Source: an uncultured Candidatus Saccharibacteria bacterium (lineage in GTDB: Bacteria; Patescibacteriota; Minisyncoccia; Portnoybacterales; UBA2143). From it: a stretch of DNA of 64,000 nucleotides. Location of the stretch: contig CAZQLH010000001.1 in NCBI GenBank assembly GCA_964594155.1, forward strand, positions 74,132 to 138,131, in the 5' to 3' direction. Position numbers and translations under genes: made by a program. This document shows positions 1 through 64,000 of this stretch, in pieces. A model generated the notes under the pieces. It was not told the origin of the DNA, did not search any database, and saw only the letters and a program-made list of their open reading frames with translations. Every line of letters begins with the position of its first letter. The stretch's first letter is position 1.

Positions 1-1057
1 AGTTCTTAGCATTAGCAGACATTTTTTGAGATATTTCCAGGTTTTCCAGGATCTTGGAAATTTCATTAAGAAGCATATGCGAGGTTAAATTAGCTTGTTC
101 TAAAACAACGGTTGCGCCAGCTCGGGCATAAGCAAAAGCGTTTTCTCTTTGATGGTCAGAAGCAGCATTAGGTAAAGGGATTAAAATACTTGGTTTGCTG
201 CAAACAGCAATTTCAGAAATACTGCCTGCGCCAGCTCTGGAAATAACGAGGTTAGCTGAAGTATAAGCAGCAGTTATTTGTTGTTCGTCTAAGAAATGAT
301 AAAGATGATATCCGTTTAATTGGCCTGTTTTTTCTTTAATTTGTTCAAAGTTTTTAAAACCGCATTGATGAATAATCTCATATTTTTCTAAAAGCCGGGA
401 AAGAGTTGATAAAATAAGTTCGTTGATTTTCTGCGCTCCCTGACTGCCGCCTAAGATAAAAATAATTGGTTTTTGGCTAGTGACGCCAAAAATATTTTTG
501 GCTTTTTCTTTTTCTCCTAAGTTAGTTAAAGCGCAAGTTTGAATGATTTCTGGACGGATTGGATTGCCTATTAAAGCTGTTTTTTTAGCAGGAAAATATT
601 CTCCAGATGAAGCAAAAGAAATAGCAATTCTTTTGGAAAATTTAGCTGCCAAACGATTAGCTAAACCAGGGACTGTATCTGATTCATGGATTAAAATAGG
701 AATTTGATAAAGCCAGCCCATTAAAACAACTGGCACGCTGCCATAACCTCCTTTGCTGAAAATAGCATCTGGCATCCAAATGTATAAATACCAAAGCGCT
801 TGGAGAAATCCAAATGGCATTTTAAATAAATCAAAAATATTCTTAATAGAAAGATACCGCCTTATTTTCCCAGCTAAAATTATTTTAACTCTAATCCCCT
901 CTTTTTCTAAAACACTTTTAGAAAAATCATCTGGCCCTAAAAAAAACATTTCTAAATTTTCCTCATTTTGAGGATAAATGTTTCTCAATTGTCTAGCAAC
1001 GGCAACTAAAGGAAAAAGATGTCCGCCTGTGCCGCCGCCTGTGAATAATATTCTCAT
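1..1057 (-). CDS. murG: UDP-N-acetylglucosamine--N-acetylmuramyl-(pentapeptide)-PP-undecaprenol GlcNAc transferase MurG; C-terminus cut by the window edge
   Basis: The minus-strand ORF starts MRILFTGGGTGGHLFPL with ATG at 1057-1055, forming an ATGA overlap with the ftsW stop. The G-rich loop GGGTGGH is the MurG/GT28 N-terminal signature. The gene lies directly downstream of ftsW, as in dcw clusters. Confidence 0.9.
   Translation of the reverse strand, partial: MRILFTGGGTGGHLFPLVAVARQLRNIYPQNEENLEMFFLGPDDFSKSVLEKEGIRVKIILAGKIRRYLSIKNIFDLFKMPFGFLQALWYLYIWMPDAIFSKGGYGSVPVVLMGWLYQIPILIHESDTVPGLANRLAAKFSKRIAISFASSGEYFPAKKTALIGNPIRPEIIQTCALTNLGEKEKAKNIFGVTSQKPIIFILGGSQGAQKINELILSTLSRLLEKYEIIHQCGFKNFEQIKEKTGQLNGYHLYHFLDEQQITAAYTSANLVISRAGAGSISEIAVCSKPSILIPLPNAASDHQRENAFAYARAGATVVLEQANLTSHMLLNEISKILENLEISQKMSANAKN
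753..971 (+). other. Spurious ORF antisense to murG
   Basis: Low-complexity translation that fully overlaps the well-supported murG frame. Confidence 0.1.
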
Positions 1058-2160
1058 ATTTTTGTATATTTTGAAATATTAACTAATATTCCTATGCCAA
1101 TCAATGAAACAACTAAAGCTGAGCCGCCATAGCTAATAAAAGGCAAAGGCATGCCAGTTAGAGGTATTAAGCCGGTAATAGCCGCTATATTAATAAACGC
1201 CTGAAGAAACAACCAGCTAGTGATTCCGCCAGCTAATAAATAGCCAAATTTATCAGGAATGTTTTTAGCAATTTTAAGCCCACGACAAGATAAAGCAATG
1301 AAAAGAATTATTAAAATTCCAGCTCCAATTAATCCCAATTCTTCAGCTGTTATAGCAAAAATAGAATCGCCAATTACTTCTGGCAAGTATTTCCATTTTT
1401 GAATACTATGACCAAGCCCTAATCCAAAAAGACCGCCTGAGCCAATAGCTAAAAGAGCCTGATTAATCTGATACCCGATTCCTTGCGGATCTGTTTCTGG
1501 ATGCAAAAAAACAGTTAATCTGCTCATTCGGTAAGAATTTGTTTTTATTAAAACATAAAAGCCAGACATAAGAAGTAATCCTATAAAAGCAAGATGCGAT
1601 ATTCTTATTCCAGCTAAAAAATAAATAGCAATTATAATGAGAATAATAATTCCTAAATCGCTTGTATTGGGCTGAAGAAGAACTAAGAGGCCAATAATGC
1701 CCATAATTATCAAACAAGGAATAATGCTTTTCTTGATAACTTTTTGGGTTTCCCCTTTTTTACTTAGCAAAGCAGATAAGTAAATAATACTGGTTAATTT
1801 AACAATTTCAAATGGCTGAATGGAAAAAGAACCTATAGCAACCCATCGCTTGGCCCCGCCATGGCTATACCCTATTGCTGGAACAAAAACTAAAGATAAA
1901 AGAACTAAGCTGAAAATCATTAAAGGAAAAGCAAATTTCTGCCAAGTTTGGTAATTAACTCTTTGAATAACAAAGAAAAATATTAAACCCAAAGACAATC
2001 CGTAAATCAATTGATGCTTTAAGAAATAGTAATTTTCATTAAAAGTGTCTTGGGAAATAACTACTGAAGCGCTGGAAAGAATAACCAATCCCATAAAGAT
2101 AAGAATAAAAACAATAAAAATAAGGATATAATCAGGTTGATGAGATTTTTTTATTATCAT
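1054..2160 (-). CDS. ftsW: SEDS-family peptidoglycan polymerase FtsW/RodA
   Basis: The 368-aa polytopic membrane protein has SEDS-like motifs (GxxxSRL, PETDPxG-like HPETDPQG). Its position between mraY and murG is typical for ftsW. Confidence 0.85.
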   Translation of the reverse strand: MIIKKSHQPDYILIFIVFILIFMGLVILSSASVVISQDTFNENYYFLKHQLIYGLSLGLIFFFVIQRVNYQTWQKFAFPLMIFSLVLLSLVFVPAIGYSHGGAKRWVAIGSFSIQPFEIVKLTSIIYLSALLSKKGETQKVIKKSIIPCLIIMGIIGLLVLLQPNTSDLGIIILIIIAIYFLAGIRISHLAFIGLLLMSGFYVLIKTNSYRMSRLTVFLHPETDPQGIGYQINQALLAIGSGGLFGLGLGHSIQKWKYLPEVIGDSIFAITAEELGLIGAGILIILFIALSCRGLKIAKNIPDKFGYLLAGGITSWLFLQAFINIAAITGLIPLTGMPLPFISYGGSALVVSLIGIGILVNISKYTKI

Positions 2161-3203
2161 AATATTTTTTCAATAAATATTATAATCAAGCCAATTACAG
2201 CCATTACTCCGTTAATCATCCAAAAACGCATGGTAATCTTTGATTCAGGCCATCCTTTTCCTTCAAAATGATGATGAATAGGCGCAGATAAAAAAACTTT
2301 TTTATTTCTAATCTTTCTAGAGGTTATCTGGATAATTACTGAAAGAGATTCCATAACCGGAATAAAGAAAATAAAGGGCAAAATTAGAAAAGCATTGGTT
2401 AGCATAGCAATAATTCCCAAAGTAATTCCCAAAGACATAGCTCCGGTATCTCCCATAAAAAAACGTGCCGGATAAATATTAAACCATAAAAAAGCCACTA
2501 AAGCGCCGATAATCACTCCGCAAAAAGCAGCTAAATCCATTTTTCCTTGAGCAAAGGCAATTACTCCATAAGAAGCAAAAGCAATTAAAAGTATTCCTCC
2601 GACTAATCCGTCTAATCCGTCTGTTTCATTTGTTGAAAAAGCAGTTGCTACTAAGACAAAAACAAAAATAAGAATATACCACCAGCCAATGTTAAAATCA
2701 CCAATAAAAGGAACATGAATCAAATCCCAGTCCAGTTTATAAAAAAACCACCAAGCGCCAAAAACAGCAATAAAAGCATAGATCAAAAGACGGTGTCTAA
2801 TTTTTAATCCGCCTCCATTAGGCCCTATTTTTAAAATCCCAAGAAGATCATCGCCTAATCCAACCAAAGCTGAAGCTATTAGGGCGCCCAAAGGCAAAAG
2901 GGTTTCCTTGCGAGTTAAAAAGTTGAAATTTTCTAAAATACTTCCTTCGCCTATTTGAGCTAAAAACCAAAAAAGCAAAGTTAGGAATAAAACAGTCCCC
3001 CAAATCAAGATACCGCCCATAGTTGGCGTGCCTTCTTTTTTCTTGTGAAATTTAGCAAAAACAGGCACTCCTTTGGTTCTAATTTGCTTGCCTAAACGGT
3101 ACTTATAGAGAAAATGAGTTAAAACTGGCGTCCAGGCCAAAGCAAAAATAAAGGAAATAGCTGCTAAGCCCAAAACGCGGGAAATGTAAAAAATATCAGG
3201 CAT
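2157..3203 (-). CDS. mraY: Phospho-N-acetylmuramoyl-pentapeptide transferase MraY
   Basis: 348-aa membrane protein with the MraY motifs FFMGDTGAMSLG and HHHFE, placed upstream of ftsW. Confidence 0.9.
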   Translation of the reverse strand: MPDIFYISRVLGLAAISFIFALAWTPVLTHFLYKYRLGKQIRTKGVPVFAKFHKKKEGTPTMGGILIWGTVLFLTLLFWFLAQIGEGSILENFNFLTRKETLLPLGALIASALVGLGDDLLGILKIGPNGGGLKIRHRLLIYAFIAVFGAWWFFYKLDWDLIHVPFIGDFNIGWWYILIFVFVLVATAFSTNETDGLDGLVGGILLIAFASYGVIAFAQGKMDLAAFCGVIIGALVAFLWFNIYPARFFMGDTGAMSLGITLGIIAMLTNAFLILPFIFFIPVMESLSVIIQITSRKIRNKKVFLSAPIHHHFEGKGWPESKITMRFWMINGVMAVIGLIIIFIEKIL

Positions 3204-3204
3204 A

Positions 3205-4128
3205 TTACCAAAGGTATGCTTTTTGAACCCAATTAATTAATCTTTCTGTTTGAAGAAATCTTTCTTGGGCTCCTAAAACAATTGTAATTAAATATTTATT
3301 ATTAGTTTCAATGACCAAGACCAAACATCCTTGAGCTTCTTCAGTATAGCCGGTTTTTCCGCCGACAATATTAGGCAAACGATTCAATAATTCATCAGTA
3401 TTAACCCAATGATGATTAATCTTTCCATCAGCTGAAGATAAATCAATGACTGGCGTTTTCATAATCTGCCAAATAATTGGATGGCTAAAACTATATTCAA
3501 CTAACTGAGCTATATCCTCAACAGTTGAAACATTTCCTGAATCATAGCCGCTTGAATCAATAAAATGAGTATTTTTCAATCTTAGCTTTTCAGCTTTTTG
3601 ATTCATTAGATCAATAAAATTTTTATCTACTTTCTGCTGTGTAATTTCAGCTAAAGATGCTGCTGCATCATTGCTTGATTCCATTAAAAGAGCATAAAGC
3701 AAACTCTTAACTGAAATTTTTTCATCAATCACTAATCCGCCCTTATCCCCATAAGCAGTAATAGCTTCTTTAGAAACAACTGCTATTTCTTCTAAATCTA
3801 TATTCTCAACAACAATTAAAGCGGTCATTAATTTAGTTAAACTAGCGATTGGCAGAACTTGATTAATGTTTTTTTGATAGAGAATTTTATTCTTATCTGG
3901 AATAAAAACTAAAGCTGCTTTTGCTTCAACTTCCGGCTCAGTTATATTCCAATCGCGAATAGGCAAAAAATTAGGATTAGCAAACCACAAGGCTGAAAAC
4001 AAAGAATGTTCCCATTTATTTAATTGAGTTTTTTCTTCTGTAAAAACATCTGAAGAAATCGGTTGCCCAATCAAAAAAGAAAAAGGATTCAAAAAAAGTA
4101 AAATAGTGATTAATGATTTAGCTAACAT
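3205..4128 (-). CDS. Serine-type D-Ala-D-Ala carboxypeptidase (peptidase S11, PBP5-like, short form)
   Basis: Carries the S11 active-site triad motifs SxxK (ASLTKLMT), SxN (ESSNDAA) and KTG (GKTGYT), with an N-terminal signal/anchor. Confidence 0.8.
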   Translation of the reverse strand: MLAKSLITILLFLNPFSFLIGQPISSDVFTEEKTQLNKWEHSLFSALWFANPNFLPIRDWNITEPEVEAKAALVFIPDKNKILYQKNINQVLPIASLTKLMTALIVVENIDLEEIAVVSKEAITAYGDKGGLVIDEKISVKSLLYALLMESSNDAAASLAEITQQKVDKNFIDLMNQKAEKLRLKNTHFIDSSGYDSGNVSTVEDIAQLVEYSFSHPIIWQIMKTPVIDLSSADGKINHHWVNTDELLNRLPNIVGGKTGYTEEAQGCLVLVIETNNKYLITIVLGAQERFLQTERLINWVQKAYLW

Positions 4129-4171: not shown

Positions 4172-5572
4172 TTATTTAACAATCTTTATGCCCAACTCAT
4201 TTAATTGCCCTGAATCAACCTTGCTTGGCGCGCCCATCATTAAATCGCGCCCATCGCCTGTTTTAGGAAAAGCTATTACTTCCCTAATATTTTCTTCATT
4301 TAAAAACATGGCTAATAAACGATCTAATCCCAAGGCAATACCGCCGTGAGGAGGCGCTCCGTATTCAAAAGCTTCTAATAAATGACCGAACTTTTCTTCT
4401 ATTTCTTCTTTAGTTAATCCAACTAATTTAAATATTTTTTCTTGAATGTCTTTTTGATGAATTCTAATGCTTCCTCCAGCTACTTCTACGCCGTTTAATA
4501 CTAAATCATATTGCTGAGAAAGAACCTCTAATGGTTCTGTGTTTAATAAAGGAATATGCTTTTTTTTAGGCGCGGTAAAAATATGATGGCAAGGGTCATG
4601 TCTTTTTTCTTCGTCATTCCATTCAAAAAGAGGAAAATTAACAACCCAAACAAATGCCAACTCATCAGGATCTTTTTTATCTTCTCTTAAATCAGGGCTA
4701 TCAGTGCCATATTTTTCCATTGCCTCTTGATAATCCAATTTTAAAAAGGGTTTAAAAGTAAGTTTTTTAGATAATTTTTCATCAAAAACAACTAATTCTT
4801 GAATGGTTTTAATAATAAGCTTTTCAATTAAATTAATAACTTTTTTCTGATTAACAAAAGACATTTCCACATCTAATTGGGTAAACTCTGGCTGTCTATT
4901 GCCTCTCAAATCTTCATCTCTAAAACACCTGGCAATTTGAAAGTATTTTTCCAAGCCAGCTACCATTAACAATTGCTTTAGTTGCTGAGGAGCTTGCGGC
5001 AAGGCATAGAATTCTCCTTGATGAAAATGAGTTGGCACTAAAAAATCTCTGGCTCCTTCTGGAGTTGATTTAGTTAAAATCGGCGTTTCTACTTCAATAA
5101 ATCCTTTCTTATCCATAAAATCTCTGATTAATTTAATTACTTTGTGCCTAAGAACTAAATTATTTTTCATTTTATGACGCCTTAAATCTAAATAACGATA
5201 TTTTAAACGAACTTCCTCTCCAACTTCCTTATACTCAGCAATTTCAAAAGGAGTTGTTTTAGCTTTATTTAATACTTTTAATTCCTTAACTTCTATTTCT
5301 ACTTGGCCAGTAGAAATTTTATCATTAATCATTCCATTGGGTCTCTTATTAATTTGCCCTATCACTTCAATCACCCATTCATTTCTTAAAGAATTAGCTA
5401 ATTTATAGCAATCTTTGTTATCTGGAGCAAATACTAACTGGATTAATCCTTTTTTATCGCGAAGGTCAATAAAAATAATCTGGCCATGATCTCTGCGCGC
5501 ATGAACCCAGCCAGCTAATCTAACCCTGTCCCCTATTTTTTCAATTGTTTTAACAGATAAAATACGCTTCAT
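4172..5572 (-). CDS. aspS: Aspartyl-tRNA synthetase, bacterial-type sequence but only 466 aa (no GAD insertion domain)
   Basis: N-terminal OB-fold anticodon-binding domain. Motif 2 [24 protein letters not shown] matches the E. coli AspRS [25 protein letters not shown]. Motif 3 [18 protein letters not shown] is present. Confidence 0.85.
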   Translation of the reverse strand: [466 protein letters not shown]

Positions 5573-33662: not shown

Positions 33663-34940
33663 TTAATTCTGTCCAACTAATAATTCATTGGCTCTTTCTG
33701 GTTCAGCCATAATTTCTTTAACAATTTTTTCCATTTTTATTGAACGCGATCCTTTTATTAAAATAATATCGCCTTTTTTAATTTCTTGCTGAAGAGGAAT
33801 ACATGCTTCACTTGATTGAGAGAATTCAAAAACCTTATCTTTGGATAATCCTTGTTTTTTAGCTTCGTCAGATATAAAGATAGATCTCTGGCCAACTGTA
33901 AAAAGCAGATCAACAACTGAAGCAACCTTTTGTCCAACTTGCCGATGCCCATTTTCTGTTTCTTCTCCTAATTCCATCATATCCCCTAAAACAGCTATTT
34001 TTCTACCCTCTTGGCCTGCGCCTGCTGCGTCTAAAATATCCAAAGCTGCTAAAACAGCCAATGGCGAAGCATTATAGCTGTCATCAATAATCCACACACC
34101 TTTAACTCCTTTAATAATATTAGTTCGCCCAGGCAAATAATAATGCTCTCTAAAAATTTCTGAAACTTCAACTAAATTAATATTAAAAAACGAACCAACG
34201 CTGGCTGCGGCTGCTATTGCGTAAACCTGTTGTTTGCCTAAGGCCTTTAATAATCTTACTGGAACAATACTTCCTTTATAATCCATTTTAAAGTTTATCC
34301 CAAAATCTCCTTTGTTAAAATCATTAATTTCCAATTCAAAGTTATCAATTCGCAAATCAGCTCCTTGGCCAAAACCATAGTTAATCTTTTTAATTTTTTC
34401 AGGCAATTCATCGCCTGCCATCCTAATAGACAAATCATCATAATTTAAAACAGCTAAACCGTCTTTGGGCAAAGATTTAACTAACAAAGCTTTTTCTTCA
34501 ACTAACCTGCCTTTTTCTGGAAAAAACTCTATATGAACTGGAAATTCGCCAATAGCTGTAAAAACGCCTACTTTAACCGGTATAAAACTTGTTAAATACT
34601 TCATATCGCCTGGCCGGTCAACTCCCATTTCTAAAACTAAAATCTTTGGGTAGTTTCTTTGCCAAATAATTGTTTTTATTGTTTTTAGAAAAATAATCAT
34701 CCAGGCAAATATTGAAGATCTTCCTGTTTCTAATCCTAAAATAGTTAAAGGCGCTCCTATCTCATTATTATAGCTCCCTATATTTCTCCTTACCTGAAAT
34801 CTTTTTTTTAAAACAAGGTAGATTGCTTCTTTGGTGCTGGTTTTGCCAACACTGCCAGTCACAGCCACAACAATTGGCTTGTAACGCCAAAGAACAATCT
34901 TGGCTAATATTTTAAGAATGTATTCTAAAATTTTTATCAT
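33663..34940 (-). CDS. murF: UDP-MurNAc-tripeptide--D-alanyl-D-alanine ligase MurF
   Basis: The P-loop VAVTGSVGKTSTKE and Mur ligase central and C-terminal domains are present. It lies downstream of ftsI. Confidence 0.85.
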   Translation of the reverse strand: MIKILEYILKILAKIVLWRYKPIVVAVTGSVGKTSTKEAIYLVLKKRFQVRRNIGSYNNEIGAPLTILGLETGRSSIFAWMIIFLKTIKTIIWQRNYPKILVLEMGVDRPGDMKYLTSFIPVKVGVFTAIGEFPVHIEFFPEKGRLVEEKALLVKSLPKDGLAVLNYDDLSIRMAGDELPEKIKKINYGFGQGADLRIDNFELEINDFNKGDFGINFKMDYKGSIVPVRLLKALGKQQVYAIAAAASVGSFFNINLVEVSEIFREHYYLPGRTNIIKGVKGVWIIDDSYNASPLAVLAALDILDAAGAGQEGRKIAVLGDMMELGEETENGHRQVGQKVASVVDLLFTVGQRSIFISDEAKKQGLSKDKVFEFSQSSEACIPLQQEIKKGDIILIKGSRSIKMEKIVKEIMAEPERANELLVGQN

Positions 34941-34941
34941 A

Positions 34942-36666
34942 TTATTGAGGCGGTATTTCTAAATAATTAAACAGGTATTCAGCCAATCTCTTAAAAACCG
35001 GTCCAACTGAATCAGAAGCAAATCGAATCCCCTGCGGCTTGTCTATTTTGATTAAAATAATAAACTTAGGATTAAAAGCCGGGGCAAATCCAACAAAAGT
35101 ATGAATGGTTTCTTCTTCAAAATAGCCTCCTTTTTCTAAATCAGGGATTTGAGCAGTGCCGGTTTTCCCAGCTATATTATAGCCGCTTACCCGCGCTGGT
35201 CTGCCAAAACCGTTTTCTGTCACGCTAACCATCATTTTGGTCAATTCTTTAGCTGTTTTTGAAGAAATAGGCTCTCCAACAATTTCTGGCTTAGTGATTA
35301 TTTCTGTTCCATCTGAATAAACTATTTTCTTAACTAAGAAAGGACGCATTATTTTTCCATTATTGGCAATAGATCCAAGCGCAGTAATTAATCCTAAGGG
35401 AGTAACAGTAATCCCTTGCCCAAAAGAAATAGTTGCTAAGTTTATTTCCCGCTTGGTAAATAAATTAGAAATATCTCCGCCAACTTCGCCATTTAAATCT
35501 ATTTTGGTTGGCTTATGAAAATTAAACCTTTGAATATATTCTTTAAAAATATCTTGGCCTATTTTCTGCTGAACAAAAACTGCTCCTGTGTTTAATGACT
35601 TTTCTAAAACCTCAGTCATGGTCTGCTGGTTATAGGCCTTGCCGTCAACATTTCTAATAACGCTTCCTTTAATTCTAACCTGTCCTGTATCCTGATAAGC
35701 AGTTTGAGGAGTAACTTTACGGCTGTCTATTCCAATAGCCATGGTAATAGGCTTAAAAACCGACCCTGGCTCGTAAACTTTTTGAATTGACGGATTTAAA
35801 AAAACATTAATATTTTCCACCATATTATACTCATTTGGATCAAAGGCCGGCCAATTAGCCATAGCTAGAATAGCTCCGCTGTCTGGCTCCATAATAATAA
35901 TGCTTCCTGATTCAGCTTTTCTCTGTTCAATTGTCTGAATTAATTCTTTTTCTGCCTTAAACTGAATATTTTGATCAATAGTTAAAATCAATTTTGCGCC
36001 GTCTTTAGCTGATTCTAATCTTTGATTAAAAGAAGGAATTCCATAGCCAGTTGTGTCTTTTTCTCCTGTTAAAAAACCGATTTGTCCTTTTAATTCATCT
36101 TCATAATATCCTTCTAAGCCATACTGGCCGATTTTCTTTTCATTGGCTTCTCCTACAAAACCCATTACATGACTAGCAAGTGTATTGTTAGGATAATAGC
36201 GCCAAGTTTCTGGAGCTAATCCTAACCCTTTAAAAGATAATTCCTTAATCTGATTAGCTGTTTCTTGATCAACTTTATGCTTTAATGGCTCATAAGGATC
36301 ATCTTGCTTGTTTACTCTTTGTAAAATAAGTTCTTTGTCTAAATCAAGCAAATCAGACAACTGATTGGCTAAATCATCTTTTTCCTCTTCAATGGCTTTT
36401 TTAGGAATAAGATAGACCTGTTGAAATTCCTTGTTAACAGCTAAAGGATAATAGAATTCATCTTTATTTCTCCGGCTTACTGATAAATCTTGAAGAAATA
36501 TTTCTCCCCGTTCAGGAAAAAGCGTTTTATAAAGTTGGTGCTGGTCTTGAGCTAAAGCGCTATAATAGTCATACTGTAAAATCTGGAGAGAAAATAAGCG
36601 GGCTAAAACCCCGCCACCTACTAAAAAGACAATAATTAACAATAAATAAATGCGCCAATATCTCAT
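34942..36666 (-). CDS. ftsI: Penicillin-binding protein 2B/3 (FtsI-like transpeptidase)
   Basis: N-terminal TM, a PBP dimerisation domain and a transpeptidase domain carrying the SxxK (SVFKPIT), SxN (SLNTGAVF) and KTGT (AGKTGTAQI) motifs. Confidence 0.85.
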   Translation of the reverse strand: MRYWRIYLLLIIVFLVGGGVLARLFSLQILQYDYYSALAQDQHQLYKTLFPERGEIFLQDLSVSRRNKDEFYYPLAVNKEFQQVYLIPKKAIEEEKDDLANQLSDLLDLDKELILQRVNKQDDPYEPLKHKVDQETANQIKELSFKGLGLAPETWRYYPNNTLASHVMGFVGEANEKKIGQYGLEGYYEDELKGQIGFLTGEKDTTGYGIPSFNQRLESAKDGAKLILTIDQNIQFKAEKELIQTIEQRKAESGSIIIMEPDSGAILAMANWPAFDPNEYNMVENINVFLNPSIQKVYEPGSVFKPITMAIGIDSRKVTPQTAYQDTGQVRIKGSVIRNVDGKAYNQQTMTEVLEKSLNTGAVFVQQKIGQDIFKEYIQRFNFHKPTKIDLNGEVGGDISNLFTKREINLATISFGQGITVTPLGLITALGSIANNGKIMRPFLVKKIVYSDGTEIITKPEIVGEPISSKTAKELTKMMVSVTENGFGRPARVSGYNIAGKTGTAQIPDLEKGGYFEEETIHTFVGFAPAFNPKFIILIKIDKPQGIRFASDSVGPVFKRLAEYLFNYLEIPPQ

Positions 36667-56904: not shown

Positions 56905-57132
56905 TTGACAACAAGAAAAGAATTAGAAAAAAAGATAGTTGACTTAGAAGCCGAACTTGCGCAGATTAAACAAATATTAAGTATTTGCGCAAGCTGCCAC
57001 AAAATTCGCGAAGAAAAAGAATGGTATCCAGTCGCAGATTTTCTTACAAAAAAATTCGGAATAATATTCAGCCACAGCATCTGTCCTGAATGCGTAAAAA
57101 AAACTCTACCGTTTGTGTCTTACAAAAAATAA
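56905..57132 (+). CDS. Small coiled-coil / Cys4 zinc-ribbon protein, TTG start
   Basis: 75 aa. A strong RBS GGAGGGGG lies 6 nt upstream of the TTG. The N-terminal coiled coil KELEKKIVDLEAELAQIKQ is followed by ICASCHKIR...SHSICPEC (CxxC...CxxC). It is the only plus-strand gene in the 48-64 kb stretch. Confidence 0.45.
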   Translation: MTTRKELEKKIVDLEAELAQIKQILSICASCHKIREEKEWYPVADFLTKKFGIIFSHSICPECVKKTLPFVSYKK

Positions 57133-57917
57133 ATTGAACCAATCACCAACAGCCCAAAAATCAACACAAAATAGCCAAAGTTAATTCTTTTGGCTATTTT
57201 TAATAGCATATCAATGGTTAATAAGCCGAAAATAAAAGAGAAAATTAATCCCAAAATTAATTCAGCTGAAAAGATTAAATTATTAAAATTAAGAATAATA
57301 TTGCCTGCTAAAACAATTGGCAAGCTCATTAAAAAACTCAACCTTAAAGCGTCTTGATCATCAAACTTTCTTAAAAGCAAAGCTGAAACAGTTAATCCAG
57401 AACGGGATAATCCTGGCAAAACAGCCAACCCCTGCATTAAGCCTAATAAAATACTATCTGTATTTTTCAAATCATTTGGCTTCTTATACCCCTGCTTAGA
57501 CGATTTAATTTGCAGATAAGCAGTAATAAGAAGAAGCAAGCCAATCACTAAAGTAATTGCTTTAGCTGATAAAGATAATTGCTCTTCCAAGTTAATAAAG
57601 ATTTTAAGCAGAGCAAATCCTAAAAATCCGCTGATTAAAAAACTTATAAAAAGAAACTTAAAGATTTTCTGTGTTTCAGTATTAGCTGATTTGTAATTAA
57701 ACATCGTTTTAATCAAAGATAAAACATCTTTGCGAAAATATACTAAAGCAGCTAAAAATGTTCCTAAATGAAGAAACAGCGCTTGTTTAACTGCTATTTC
57801 TATAGTTATTCCGTCTTTTAAAAAATTCTCTGTAATCAGAACTATTACTCCTTCAGAGCTAACTGGAAGCCATTCAGTAATTCCTTGAACAATGCCTAAA
57901 ATTATTTGTTCTAACAT
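57120..57917 (-). CDS. uppP: Undecaprenyl-diphosphatase UppP (BacA)
   Basis: 265-aa membrane protein with the BacA motifs GITEWLPVSSEG and PGLSRSG. Confidence 0.85.
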   Translation of the reverse strand: MLEQIILGIVQGITEWLPVSSEGVIVLITENFLKDGITIEIAVKQALFLHLGTFLAALVYFRKDVLSLIKTMFNYKSANTETQKIFKFLFISFLISGFLGFALLKIFINLEEQLSLSAKAITLVIGLLLLITAYLQIKSSKQGYKKPNDLKNTDSILLGLMQGLAVLPGLSRSGLTVSALLLRKFDDQDALRLSFLMSLPIVLAGNIILNFNNLIFSAELILGLIFSFIFGLLTIDMLLKIAKRINFGYFVLIFGLLVIGSIYFL

Positions 57918-60159: not shown

Positions 60160-60450
60160 TTATTTTATATTAAATTTATTTTTATAAACTTCTTCTAATA
60201 TTTCTAAGGACGCTTGAACTGATGGGTTGTCAGTATTCTTTAATACCAACCTATCTTTGTATTTATTGTACAAAAAACCCAAAAACTCATCACCCCAAGA
60301 TGGTGTAAAAGTTATAACGCCCTCAAAGTCAACAATAATTTTTTCATCTTTTTTAACTTCTCTTAGAGAAGACTTAAAAGCAGTAATTGATTCCCTGCCA
60401 AATTGCCGACTATTTAAAGTTGTGCCGAATTTTTTAAGATATATAGTCAT
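60160..60450 (-). CDS. Small STAS-like / DUF4325-like protein (putative partner of the adjacent GHKL kinase)
   Basis: 96 aa reading KIIVDFEGVITFTPSWGDEFLG, which resembles STAS/anti-sigma-antagonist-like domains. It starts 4 nt after the upstream gene's stop. The family call is tentative. Confidence 0.35.
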   Translation of the reverse strand: MTIYLKKFGTTLNSRQFGRESITAFKSSLREVKKDEKIIVDFEGVITFTPSWGDEFLGFLYNKYKDRLVLKNTDNPSVQASLEILEEVYKNKFNIK

Positions 60451-60454
60451 TTTT

Positions 60455-61195
60455 TTAAAATTTAATTAATGCTAAACAACCTTGTAAATAAATATTTGAT
60501 TTTTCGATATTTAAATTAACCCTACTTTTATTAATTTTAAGCTTTGCATCACCAGTTTGAAAAATCAAATTTATTTCATTGTCAGCAACAACATTTCTAA
60601 CAAACTTTAATCCATTACCGCGATGCTCTGGAGCGCGTCCAGAGATTACTTCGTTAAAGGCAACATCTAACGCCTTCTGATGAGTTGATAATTTTGGTCT
60701 AACTTTTTTCAACGTTGCCAATATTCCCTGGCCTCTATCTGCTAAAACTATCTTTTTTCCATGTAAATCATAGGCAAAAAATACACCTGGAATATCTGGC
60801 CATTTACCTAAATTATGATCAAAAGAATTATTACCGATTTCGCCTGTAATAGCCGAAATCAAAGGGAATATTTTACCTAATTCTCTTATTTCCCCTAATT
60901 TACCTTCTAATTTTACTAATCGTGCTTGGAATACCGAACTATCAAGGCAATAAAAATCAGGATAGAATTCTGTCTTTAAATCACTTACAACCCAACTTCT
61001 TGCTAATTTAACAAGTAAACTTCTTGTATTATTTTTTATATAATTATCAACATCACTTCTTCTATAATATCTATGTCCAGTTATTCCTTTGCGAACTGAA
61101 GATAACTTATCAATATCATCCCACCGCCGTAAAGTTTGAATAGAAACGCCAAATATTTTAGACACTTGACCAATTGTTAGTAATTTTGAATTCAT
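60455..61195 (-). CDS. MerR-family HTH fused to a GHKL (RsbW/SpoIIAB-like) serine-kinase / anti-sigma ATPase domain
   Basis: The N-terminal LLTIGQVSKIFGVSIQTLRRWDDIDKL is a MerR HTH. The N-box is EIGNNSFDHN, the G1 box is ADRGQGI (DxGxG) and the G2 box is GNGLKFV. Confidence 0.6.
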   Translation of the reverse strand: MNSKLLTIGQVSKIFGVSIQTLRRWDDIDKLSSVRKGITGHRYYRRSDVDNYIKNNTRSLLVKLARSWVVSDLKTEFYPDFYCLDSSVFQARLVKLEGKLGEIRELGKIFPLISAITGEIGNNSFDHNLGKWPDIPGVFFAYDLHGKKIVLADRGQGILATLKKVRPKLSTHQKALDVAFNEVISGRAPEHRGNGLKFVRNVVADNEINLIFQTGDAKLKINKSRVNLNIEKSNIYLQGCLALIKF

Positions 61196-61300: not shown

Positions 61301-63679
61301 TTAATACCCTGTATTTTCTATTAATTTCTCTAATAAGCTTCTTGGAAAAATTGGCGGATTTTCTGTTAAGGCCTGATGATACAAAACAGTAGAAGGAGTT
61401 AAAGCAGGCAATGTATTCATTTCAATAATCAATAAATCCCCTGTTTTAATATTAGTAAAAGTATCAATTCGCGAATAGCCTTTTAATTTCATCTTATTAA
61501 CCATTTTCCCTATTAAGGACTTAGTTCTATTTAACGCTTTTTTATTCATAATAGTTTCTGGCGGCGGGGTGATATTTACCCCGGTTCCTCCTTGAAACTT
61601 TTCCTCAACTGTTAAAACCTCGCCTTCAGCCACAGTAATGCTTGGATTAAAAACCCTTAATTTGCCTTTGTCCTCAGCTACCCCTATGGTTGTTTCCAGC
61701 CAACCGCTTCTCTGACGATGTTTTAACTTATTCCCTTTAACCCTTAAAACATCTGTTTCTATGAATTTCTCAAAAAGCAGTTCCTTCATTGGCTCTAATG
61801 GCATTTCTAAAATATCATTCTGGTTTTTAAAAGTGTTCTTAGATACAGAAGTTGCCCTTGATTTAATCACTTCAATGTATTTCCTTAATTCATTAACTGA
61901 AAAAAGATGAACTACTCCGGAAGAACAGCCATCAGCGCGCGGTTTAACCACTATTGTATCAGCGTCTAATTCTTGACGCAGTTTTTTCCAAAAATCTTTT
62001 AATCTATTGTTTCTCAGGTTAAATAAATACTTGGTTTGAACAAGTTTTTTAGGAATAGGATTTAATCCCTTGATTTTTAAGCTTTTAATAAATTCAGCTG
62101 TTTTCCATTTATCCATTCCTAATCTAGAAACTCTTTCATCAGGCCCATTAAACTTAACTTTTTGTTCAGCCAATGTTTTCTGTAAATTTCCGTTTTCTCC
62201 ATCTCCGCCATGCAAAGCAATGAAAATAAAATCTGAATCTTTAATAAATTTATCCAAAGCCATGCCGGTTGGCTCAAAAAAATCCTGTTCATCTTTATCT
62301 TCTGATAAATCTAATCTATTTCTGGCTCTTCTTTCAAACATTCCTAATCTTTCTTTAGCTGTCTGGTAATTCCTGCAATTATCAATAATCTCTTCAACAG
62401 TATGGTTTAAAGTTAAATGATAAGGCAAGTGCCAGACCCGTCCGTCAATATCCCATAAATACGGCTGTGGATCATATTTTTTTGAATTGCGAAGTTTTAA
62501 CCAGGTATTGGTTCCGCTCATTAAAGAAACCTGTCTTTCTGAAGTATCTCCGCCAAAAAGAATATTGATTGGTTTTCTTTTTCTTTTGATTTTTAAATAA
62601 TTCTTGTTTTTCTCTTCTGGAAAACTAATATTATGGCGAAAACAGGCCTGTTTAACAATATATCTTAAAATATCTCTATGACTCATCCCCACTCTTGATG
62701 CTTGCTGGAATAAAAAGCTGTTTTGTTCCATTCCGCTAATCGGATTAAAATCAGAAAACCATATTTTGTTATCAGGCAGAACCCAGCCGTCAAATCTGCC
62801 AAAATCTTCCATTTCTAAAAGAGAAAATAACTGTTCTGCTTGTGTTTGAATTGTTTCTATTGTTTCATTGTTGAACCGAGGCGGACAATGATAAGTTACT
62901 TGTCGAGTAGGCAAATATTTTTTTCTGTAATCAAAAATCTGATGCTTAGTATAATCTGCCTCTATTTCTGTTGGAACTAAAGCCACGGGCAAGCCAAAGC
63001 GATTCTTTAGGATAATCACTGTAAATTCTATGCCTTGAACAAATGGCTCTATCACCACCCGCTTATCCATTCGTTTAGAAAAAAGCAATTTTGCTTTTTC
63101 CAACGCTTCTTCAGGAGTAGACACGGAAAAAACACCAATACTGGAACCGCCAGCAGCCGGCTTAACCACAGCTCGCTTAATATTATGTTTTTCAAAAAAA
63201 CTCTTTATAACTTGCTTATGATTATTATAATGTATTTTCAAAACATCTGAAGGAAAACCAAAAAAACCATGCTGCTTGATAAACTCATTGGCAATATATT
63301 TATCAAAAGCTCTTTTACATGTTTTAGAATCAGAACCAATAAAAGGAATATTATTCTTTTCAAAAAAGCTTTGGATTCCGCCATCTTCGCCAAAAGCGCC
63401 ATGTATCACTGGAAAAGCAATATCTGCTTTTTTAAGCAAGCGAATTAAAGATTGATCAGCCAAAGGCGAAGCAGTCTGTTTTAATTTAAAATCAAAATCT
63501 GAAGGAGTATTAGAATAAAGCTGGGAAATAGAAATCTGATAAGGGTTCTTTTTGGAATCAAAATAAAAAGGGATGATTTCAATTTTATCAGAACTCAAAT
63601 GATCTAAAACAGACCGAGCTGAATTCAATGAAATTCCCCTTTCCAATGAAGGCCCTCCGCAAACCAACGCTACTTTCAT
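61301..63679 (-). CDS. Tandem fusion of two D-alanine--D-alanine ligase-like ATP-grasp modules (792 aa)
   Basis: The Ddl N-terminal signature occurs twice: MKVALVCGGPSLERGISLNSARSV and, at about residue 370, PINILFGGDTSERQVSLMSGTNT. Each is followed by an ATP-grasp-like region. Confidence 0.7.
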   Translation of the reverse strand: MKVALVCGGPSLERGISLNSARSVLDHLSSDKIEIIPFYFDSKKNPYQISISQLYSNTPSDFDFKLKQTASPLADQSLIRLLKKADIAFPVIHGAFGEDGGIQSFFEKNNIPFIGSDSKTCKRAFDKYIANEFIKQHGFFGFPSDVLKIHYNNHKQVIKSFFEKHNIKRAVVKPAAGGSSIGVFSVSTPEEALEKAKLLFSKRMDKRVVIEPFVQGIEFTVIILKNRFGLPVALVPTEIEADYTKHQIFDYRKKYLPTRQVTYHCPPRFNNETIETIQTQAEQLFSLLEMEDFGRFDGWVLPDNKIWFSDFNPISGMEQNSFLFQQASRVGMSHRDILRYIVKQACFRHNISFPEEKNKNYLKIKRKRKPINILFGGDTSERQVSLMSGTNTWLKLRNSKKYDPQPYLWDIDGRVWHLPYHLTLNHTVEEIIDNCRNYQTAKERLGMFERRARNRLDLSEDKDEQDFFEPTGMALDKFIKDSDFIFIALHGGDGENGNLQKTLAEQKVKFNGPDERVSRLGMDKWKTAEFIKSLKIKGLNPIPKKLVQTKYLFNLRNNRLKDFWKKLRQELDADTIVVKPRADGCSSGVVHLFSVNELRKYIEVIKSRATSVSKNTFKNQNDILEMPLEPMKELLFEKFIETDVLRVKGNKLKHRQRSGWLETTIGVAEDKGKLRVFNPSITVAEGEVLTVEEKFQGGTGVNITPPPETIMNKKALNRTKSLIGKMVNKMKLKGYSRIDTFTNIKTGDLLIIEMNTLPALTPSTVLYHQALTENPPIFPRSLLEKLIENTGY

Positions 63680-63694: not shown

Positions 63695-64000
63695 TTAACT
63701 TTTTCTTTTAGCTCTATAAATCAGGAGCAAAGCCGCAGCAGCCAAAACTAAAACAATTATCATCCAGGCATTGCCGTTAGCTTCTTTAATAAAAGCTAAT
63801 AATATTCCTTGGTCAAGCTGGGCAAGATCTGAAAAAGCAAGTTTGGCAAAATATATTTCATTTCCATTTTCTCCTCTTGTATCCTGCCAGACAAAAGCAT
63901 ATTGAGAAGTCCCTAAGGCAATTATTGGCTTGATAGCTTCTTGATTTGTTTGAGAAATTTGAACTAATTCATTTTTCCAATGTCCTTTTTCATCAAGATT
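63695..64000 (-). CDS. Partial ORF (N-terminus outside the window) ending in a C-terminal TM anchor plus basic tail
   Basis: Hand translation gives ...NGNAWMIIVLVLAAAALLLIYRAKRKS with stop at 63697-63695. The frame is open to the window edge. Confidence 0.3.
   Translation of the reverse strand, partial: NLDEKGHWKNELVQISQTNQEAIKPIIALGTSQYAFVWQDTRGENGNEIYFAKLAFSDLAQLDQGILLAFIKEANGNAWMIIVLVLAAAALLLIYRAKRKS

Follow-up and report, generated by a model that had tools for sequence, protein, structure and literature searches.

A stretch of 64,000 nucleotides from an uncultured Candidatus Saccharibacteria bacterium (contig CAZQLH010000001.1; the whole stretch is referred to here as the window) encodes a protein in which two modules of D-alanine-D-alanine ligase, abbreviated Ddl, follow one another in a single open reading frame (ORF), which raises the question of what such a tandem Ddl-Ddl protein is and whether its two active sites make the same product. 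The evidence described below suggests, with a probability of roughly 70%, that the window protein is the D-alanine-D-alanine ligase of this Patescibacteria (Candidate Phyla Radiation, CPR) genome and that it belongs to a tandem family that includes the DDL enzymes of plants. The window gene itself appears to be a routine orthologue, and the interest that remains lies in the second active site, which carries a Glu-Cys-Phe triad.

The gene is an intact minus-strand ORF with an ATG start, found in the ORF listing as 792 amino acids (aa) at window positions 61301..63679. Its parts are given here with the basis of each assignment in brackets; pLDDT is the predicted local distance difference test score of a structure model.

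61301..63679, minus strand: complete tandem Ddl-Ddl gene, 792 aa plus the stop codon (ORF listing, Pfam and NCBIfam scans, identical protein elsewhere)
62630..63679, minus strand: N module, aa 1-350, predicted canonical D-Ala-D-Ala ligase (TIGR01205, DdlB residue mapping)
62576..62629, minus strand: inter-module linker, aa 351-368, ISFPEEKNKNYLKIKRKR (conservation profile, pLDDT, translation)
61304..62575, minus strand: C module, aa 369-792, divergent Ddl paralogue (Pfam on the half alone, PDB 8evx alignment, residue mapping)

The fusion of two Ddl modules in one ORF had been recognized in a first-pass annotation of the DNA, and this reading is borne out by the domain content of the halves. 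The Ddl N-terminal signature MKVALVCGGPSLERGISLNSA stands at the N terminus of the translation and a second one, ILFGGDTSERQVSLMSG, begins at about aa 372, as had been quoted. When the halves were scanned separately, each matched both Pfam domains, Dala_Dala_lig_N and Dala_Dala_lig_C, and all four matches exceed the gathering cut-offs (87.5 and 103.7 bits in the N half, 65.1 and 46.9 bits in the C half). On TIGR01205, whose cut-off is 245.65, the whole protein reaches 301 bits, and its best-matching stretch is aa 2-345. The annotation had also placed the gene outside the dcw (division and cell wall) segments of the window, with no ddl inside them, and this holds as well. There are two dcw-type segments in the window, one at 1054-4128 (ftsW, mraY, and a DD-peptidase) and one at 33663-36666 (a murF-like gene and ftsI); the tandem ddl lies approximately 25 kb from the nearer of these, and tblastn searches of the 64-kb window with each half and with Escherichia coli DdlB found no further ddl.

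The two active sites were compared by aligning the halves of ten diverse family members to E. coli DdlB. All of the numbered positions of the DdlB sequence used had the expected residue, which supports that sequence. Fourteen positions were read in each module of the window protein:

DdlB Glu15: N module E13, C module E381
DdlB His63: N module H93, C module H490
DdlB Lys97: N module K127, C module K524
DdlB Lys144: N module K173, C module K579
DdlB Ser150: N module S179, C module C585 (changed)
DdlB Glu180: N module E211, C module E637
DdlB Glu187: N module E218, C module E662
DdlB Lys215: N module K254, C module K694
DdlB Tyr216: N module Y255, C module F695 (changed)
DdlB Arg255: N module R295, C module R737
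DdlB Asp257: N module D297, C module D739
DdlB Glu270: N module D310 (Asp for Glu), C module E753
DdlB Asn272: N module N312, C module N755
DdlB Ser281: N module S321, C module T764 (changed)

The Glu15-Ser150-Tyr216 triad and the catalytic set (Lys215, Arg255, Asp257, Glu270, and Asn272) are complete in the N module, save for the Asp at the Glu270 position, and by its residues the N module reads as a canonical D-Ala-D-Ala ligase. The C module, as does the N module, keeps those of the 14 residues that serve ATP binding, Mg binding, and acyl-phosphate chemistry. The second half thus retains all of its ATP-grasp catalytic residues and is not the degenerate linker that the first-pass annotation had allowed for. 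The assignments of C585 and F695 are matched by an independent HMMER alignment to PDB 8evx, and the DdlB Leu282 position of the C module is occupied by Val in the 10 aligned family members.

The conservation of these residues was followed in 108 full-length representatives that are 33-64% identical to the query, all of which, the query included, have the same module order. In the N-module triad, all 108 have Ser and Tyr and 106 have Glu, the other two being alignment gaps. The positions that are changed in the C module are nearly as constant (Cys in 102, Phe in 107, and Thr in 104 of the 108). The phosphate-transfer and metal residues are kept in at least 103 representatives in both halves, the sole exception being the Glu180 position of the N module (Glu in 89, Gln in 19). 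Because the catalytic residues barely vary over the 108 representatives, both sites appear to be under selection as working ATP-grasp sites. Among the closest 120 homologues (61-89% identical), mean column conservation is 0.80 in the N half versus 0.70 in the C half, both of which are high.

The double-DDL architecture is already known from plants, and bacterial relatives have been noticed before. The window protein aligns to the 956-aa Coffea eugenioides protein XP_027176337 (P0173) in one stretch, query residues 2-787 to plant residues 82-948, with 45% identity and E = 5.8e-176, and reciprocal BLAST of the plant protein gives 42-47% identity to bacterial members. Motifs common to the two include GSSIGV and RKKYLPT in the N module and KP..DGCS.G (DGCSTG in Coffea) and EEKFQGGTG in the C module. 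The window protein has the arrangement of the plant-type tandem DDL, with the canonical module first, the divergent module second, and colinear homology to the plant protein; the C-module signature (Cys at Ser150, Phe at Tyr216, and EEKFQGGTG) and the insertions of this module are likewise common to both. Plant DDL has been described as a fusion of two DDL enzymes that is needed for plastid peptidoglycan, and moss Ddl knock-outs lose D-alanine dimerization for peptidoglycan and form macrochloroplasts (PMC9954125). The plant gene has been attributed to horizontal transfer from Chlamydiae/CFB (Cytophaga-Flavobacterium-Bacteroides) bacteria (PMC3493653). Among the papers that could be searched, none was found on bacterial tandem Ddl proteins or on separation of the two sites.

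The location of the gene near the end of the window is the only thing that invites the idea that the fusion is an artefact, in which mis-assembly or a frameshift would have joined two adjacent ddl genes; no support for this was found. Several JGI and ENA assemblies, independent of one another, together contain 21 contigs that carry the identical 792-aa protein with the same neighbors. When one genome was scanned per species, at least 573 genomes proved to encode a relative, and an intact ORF of more than 650 aa was found in 81 of 82 loci, these being the 80 best of the at least 573 species genomes plus two fetched earlier. The same architecture is found in plant nuclear genes. An assembly or frameshift artefact is rejected on these grounds and has next to no probability; the assembly error that the first-pass annotation had considered as a way in which its reading could fail is contradicted by a junction that recurs from assembly to assembly.

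Nor is the fusion an oddity of this genome. Among 2885 relatives from a word-indexed protein search, the top 120 are all 764-834 aa long and 61-89% identical to the query over at least 97% of its length. When 1.84 billion cluster representatives were searched exhaustively with HMMER, 371 had E < 1e-30, and more than 100 of these are full-length tandem proteins of approximately 780-830 aa. The hosts named in the titles of the species genomes are mostly Patescibacteria of many classes; the remaining record titles name candidate division TM6/Dependentiae, Parachlamydiales, Coxiellaceae, Thiotrichales, Francisellaceae, and Rickettsiales metagenome-assembled genomes (MAGs). The window gene is an ordinary member of this large conserved family, which covers, besides most of the Patescibacteria lineages sampled and land plants, the Dependentiae, the Parachlamydiales, and MAGs of several Gammaproteobacteria and of Rickettsiales. 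The window DNA is itself patescibacterial, as its DnaK clusters at 90% identity with proteins labeled "Patescibacteria group bacterium" and "Candidatus Portnoybacteria".

Two further observations concern the distribution of the family. Full-length identity among the Patescibacteria and the non-Patescibacteria groups named above is 56-66% (loci L007-L086), which is unusually high for such distant phyla and suggests that the gene has spread horizontally among host-associated lineages or that some of the contigs are mis-binned. At one locus (L089:5561-7212) the tandem gene is apparently broken: a Dala_Dala_lig_N fragment of 126 aa comes first, then a C-type ORF of 403 aa, and then alr. Possible explanations are a pseudogene, a frameshift error, and an ongoing fission.

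The history of the two halves can be read from their divergence. The halves of the query are approximately 20% identical to each other and 28% (N) and 26% (C) identical to E. coli DdlB. Against a Parachlamydiales member, the N halves are approximately 69% and the C halves approximately 56% identical. A neighbor-joining tree was built from 27 N halves and 27 C halves, together with 10 standalone C-type proteins and DdlB. The N halves all group in one clade and the C-type sequences all group in a second, which branches in a similar way; three deep-branching members, and a group that contains the plant protein, recur in the two clades. Because the two clades are separate and branch similarly, the tree indicates that two deeply diverged paralogues were fused once, long ago, and have diverged together since; as a simple distance tree with one outgroup, it supports no more than this coarse statement. 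A recent tandem duplication, which the first-pass annotation had raised alongside a fusion of distinct paralogues, is rejected, as the halves fall into separate clades and are less similar to each other than either is to DdlB.

The structural features of the two modules were examined using the alignments and an AlphaFold2 model built with a 58-sequence alignment. They are located as follows:

62906..62944, minus strand: omega-loop (lid) of the N module, HQIFDYRKKYLPT, with K254 and Y255 (alignment, low pLDDT, translation)
61583..61624, minus strand: omega-loop of the C module, GEVLTVEEKFQGGT, with K694 and F695 (alignments, low pLDDT, translation)
62270..62425, minus strand: insertion 1 of the C module, aa 419-470, helical, in the N-terminal subdomain (DdlB alignment, model)
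61700..61861, minus strand: insertions 2 and 3 of the C module, aa 607-660, in the central ATP-grasp subdomain (DdlB alignment, model)
63482-63517 and 62702-62737: family-specific motifs of the N module, YSNTPSDFDFKL (aa 55-66) and SGMEQNSFLFQQ (aa 315-326)

The whole chain is modeled with a mean pLDDT of 88 and a predicted TM-score (pTM) of 0.87. The only poorly defined segments are the two omega-loops (aa 246-258 and 686-699), and the omega-loops of Ddl enzymes are mobile lids. The EEKFQGGTG motif of the C-module omega-loop does not vary within the family, and the plant protein has it unchanged as well. Insertion 1 has helices at 420-455 in the model and contains the invariant residues Y420, H426, T427, E429, E430, I431, and C435, while a beta-hairpin is modeled at 644-655 within the region of insertions 2 and 3. 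The linker (aa 351-368) is weakly conserved, with an unbroken reading frame and a pLDDT that dips to 68-74. Because the pTM is so high for a two-module chain, the modules appear to be held in a fixed mutual orientation, and a covalent version of the Ddl dimer, or the pseudo-dimer that the first-pass annotation had envisaged, fits the confident whole-chain model. Foldseek searches of the PDB returned only single-module Ddl and Van ligases (TM-scores of 0.78-0.89 normalized to the target and at most 0.40 normalized to the query), and no tandem Ddl structure covering both modules was found there. The N-module motifs YSNTPSDFDFKL and SGMEQNSFLFQQ are specific to the family, nearly invariant, and have no counterpart in E. 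coli DdlB; they are candidates for an inter-module interface or an extra binding surface.

The place of the tandem protein in the peptidoglycan pathway was examined through its neighbors in 81 related loci and through larger fusions. Alanine racemase (TIGR00492, 322 bits) is the commonest neighbor, with 18 of the 81 loci having it within 5 kb; it usually follows the tandem gene immediately, in the same orientation, and the median distance is 6.5 nt. None of the related loci has a second ddl within 10 kb. On a 1.22-Mb contig (L005) the tandem gene is directly upstream of a POTRA/FtsQ gene, and at another locus (L016) an FtsQ-like gene is just downstream of it; the position just upstream of ftsQ is the classic one for ddl. 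In L005 a gene for a VanX/DdpX-like D-Ala-D-Ala dipeptidase (Peptidase_M15; L005:9235-9888) directly precedes the tandem gene, giving the order dipeptidase, ddl-ddl, ftsQ. Some family members carry further domains: P0151 is a Ddl-Ddl-MurF protein of 1262 aa, P0176 is a Ddl-Ddl-MurF-Alr protein of 1638 aa that ends in alanine racemase, and P0160 is a GNAT acetyltransferase-Ddl-Ddl protein of 987 aa with the GNAT domain at its N terminus. The MurF parts of P0151 and P0176 pass TIGR01143 (323 and 357 bits). As "Rosetta stone" fusions, these two proteins link the tandem protein to three steps of the pathway, those of alanine racemase, Ddl, and MurF.

The tandem protein is most likely the housekeeping supplier of D-Ala-D-Ala in this genome, as judged from homology and residue content and, indirectly, from the alr and murF neighborhoods and fusions of the family. 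In the proposed pathway, alanine racemase would make D-Ala, the tandem Ddl would join two D-Ala into D-Ala-D-Ala, and the dipeptide would pass to MurF for synthesis of the UDP-MurNAc-pentapeptide. The two modules would pack as the covalent equivalent of the usual Ddl homodimer, and both active sites would turn over. The expected consumer of the dipeptide is the murF-like ligase of the window:

33663..34940, minus strand: murF-like Mur ligase (Pfam Mur_ligase_M and Mur_ligase_C), adjoining ftsI at 34942-36666

The best NCBIfam match of this gene is TIGR01143 murF, at 250.6 bits, just below the cut-off of 288.6.

Several points weigh against reading the whole tandem protein as a supplier of D-Ala-D-Ala. 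The alanine racemase neighborhood is found in only 22% of loci. On TIGR01205, the C half by itself reaches only 97.5 bits (cut-off 245.65); it stays below every NCBIfam cut-off for Ddl and Van ligases, and the C module lacks two of the three specificity-triad residues, having Glu-Cys-Phe versus Glu-Ser-Tyr. The default reading is that the C module also makes D-Ala-D-Ala, and Phe-type Ddl enzymes and the DdlB Y216F mutant still make this dipeptide. The suggestion of the first-pass annotation that a D-Ala-D-X variant could be made draws some support from the invariant Cys and Phe substitutions in the C module (F695 is a residue of the type, non-Tyr and either His or Phe, that is looked for at the Tyr216 position of D-Ala-D-lactate (D-Ala-D-Lac) ligases, and the N module has Tyr there). 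The C module might then be a separate enzyme whose second-substrate specificity is set by the Glu-Cys-Phe triad and the family insertions, yielding D-Ala-D-Lac or another D-Ala-D-X, although this is considered doubtful. The Y216F and S150A mutants of E. coli DdlB reportedly both gained D-Ala-D-Lac activity in the hands of Park, Lin and Walsh in 1996, and PDB 1IOW, among the Foldseek matches, is the Y216F mutant. A Phe at the Tyr216 position is also the determinant of depsipeptide activity in the Ddl of lactic acid bacteria, in which Phe or Tyr sets depsipeptide versus dipeptide synthesis (PMC5996685). On this evidence, and with the VanX-like dipeptidase upstream of the tandem gene in L005, the protein could be bifunctional, with an N module that makes D-Ala-D-Ala and a C module that makes D-Ala-D-Lac, D-Ala-D-Ser, or other D-Ala-D-X, giving two stem-peptide termini. 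Such a dual role is nevertheless unlikely. The C half scores far below the D-Ala-D-Lac model (NCBIfam D_ala_D_lac; 35.2 bits for the C half and 126.7 for the whole protein, with a cut-off of 550) and the D-Ala-D-Ser models (NCBIfam D_ala_D_ser/VanG; 55-56 bits for the C half, with cut-offs of 495-520). VanC-type ligases have Arg at the DdlB Leu282 position (R322 in VanC2), rather than the Val of the C module. The VanX-like neighbor occurs in only one of the 81 loci, that of the Patescibacteria contig L005, and VanH-like and VanT-like genes are absent from the conserved neighbors of the related loci. Finally, the moss pentapeptide precursor is reportedly the same as that of typical Gram-negative bacteria (PMC9434261).

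The altered triad, the greater divergence of the C module, its three insertions, and its scores below family cut-offs could instead mean that this module is catalytically inactive and serves to stabilize or control a single active N module. This is judged improbable, and more so than a second product, because retention of the catalytic set is not expected of a dead domain, and the equivalents of K97, K144, E180, E187, K215, R255, D257, E270, and N272 are essentially invariant in the 108 representatives. Standalone C-type genes that keep the catalytic residues also speak against a silent C module. These form a clade of proteins of approximately 415-445 aa (P0236 and P0334-P0343) that is nested inside the C-module clade and retains the Cys/Phe signature. 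One of them, P0342 (L088:6001-7281), is located among housekeeping genes, between aspS and the endonuclease III gene, with no N-type ddl adjacent, and its close relative P0338 is labeled Pseudomonadota. Their retained signature and their housekeeping-gene surroundings suggest that the C module can function by itself, and these genes may represent a functional single-module derivative.

The preferred reading, that of a D-Ala-D-Ala ligase with two working sites, carries implications beyond this genome, as bacteria with very small genomes and land plants have the same double Ddl, whose two active sites have both survived since the ancient fusion. At the second of these are exactly the substitutions that relax the choice of the second substrate in well-studied Ddl enzymes. 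If the C module does have a product of its own, then Patescibacteria, Dependentiae, some Chlamydiae, and plant plastids would carry a bifunctional ligase that provides two peptidoglycan stem termini, and the standalone C-type genes in some Pseudomonadota MAGs would constitute a previously unrecognized class of Ddl-like ligase. Examining the two sites separately would shed light on how CPR bacteria and plastids make D-Ala-D-Ala or another terminus, and might account for the lack of a phenotype in Arabidopsis ddl insertion lines in which the C-terminal half is still expressed (PMC9954125).

The genes that flank the tandem ddl in the window are the following:

63696-64000, minus strand, continuing past the window (full gene L001:3876-5150): upstream gene, 424-aa protein with a C-terminal hydrophobic anchor
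60160-61195, minus strand: two genes directly downstream of ddl, encoding a 246-aa protein with an N-terminal MerR/BldC-like helix-turn-helix and a 96-aa DUF4325 protein

The ddl start lies 16 nt past the stop codon of the gene for the upstream membrane-anchored protein, which has no Pfam match and is probably co-transcribed with ddl in this lineage. The MerR/BldC-like and DUF4325 genes may form a small regulatory pair. The immediate window context of ddl is uninformative on function. Elsewhere in the window, uppP is located at 57120-57917 and adds to the peptidoglycan genes of the dcw-type segments, and the aspartyl-tRNA synthetase at 4172-5572 (minus strand) is only 466 aa long, matches a 590-aa bacterial model in two stretches, and appears to lack the bacterial insertion (GAD) domain.

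Comparison with characterized ligases places these features in context. Each module has the fold of the canonical Ddl enzymes (E. coli DdlB, PDB 2DLN/1IOW, and those of Thermus thermophilus and Staphylococcus aureus), and every DdlB catalytic residue position is filled in the N module. Canonical Ddl enzymes are approximately 300-380 aa long and form non-covalent homodimers, whereas the tandem protein consists of two diverged modules (approximately 20% identical) that are covalently joined. The C module resembles the Phe-type Ddl enzymes (Leuconostoc LmDdl2, PDB 1EHI, and those of Lactobacillus, as well as DdlB Y216F) in having Phe at the Tyr216 position. The Phe-type enzymes, however, keep Ser150, are single-module proteins, and are not close in sequence, while the C module has Cys and three insertions. 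VanA and VanB (D-Ala-D-Lac) and VanC and VanG (D-Ala-D-Ser) share the ATP-grasp fold and, like the C module, have the omega-loop Tyr replaced; unlike these ligases, the C module scores far below the corresponding NCBIfam cut-offs and has Val, not Arg, at the Leu282 position. No vanH/vanX/vanT operon context is present in the window, and no dehydrogenase is found among the conserved neighbors of the 81 related loci. A vancomycin-resistance-type operon is rejected as a general explanation, as the VanX-like neighbor is confined to L005 and none is found in the window.

The chlamydial MurC-Ddl (NF011171) and MurF-Alr (NF008897) proteins fuse consecutive steps of the D-Ala branch, as do the Ddl-Ddl-MurF(-Alr) members of the tandem family. 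In contrast, the window protein is a fusion of two paralogues with no Mur ligase or racemase domain; it reaches 147 bits on NF011171 (cut-off 1015), and only over the Ddl part of that model. The proteins with the same two-module order, colinear over the full length, are the plant DDL enzymes (Physcomitrium PpDDL and Arabidopsis AT3G08840, represented in the alignments by Coffea XP_027176337). The Coffea protein differs from the window protein in having an N-terminal extension of approximately 80 aa, which is read as a putative plastid transit peptide, and in being encoded by a eukaryotic nuclear gene, whereas the window gene is bacterial and belongs to the Patescibacteria.

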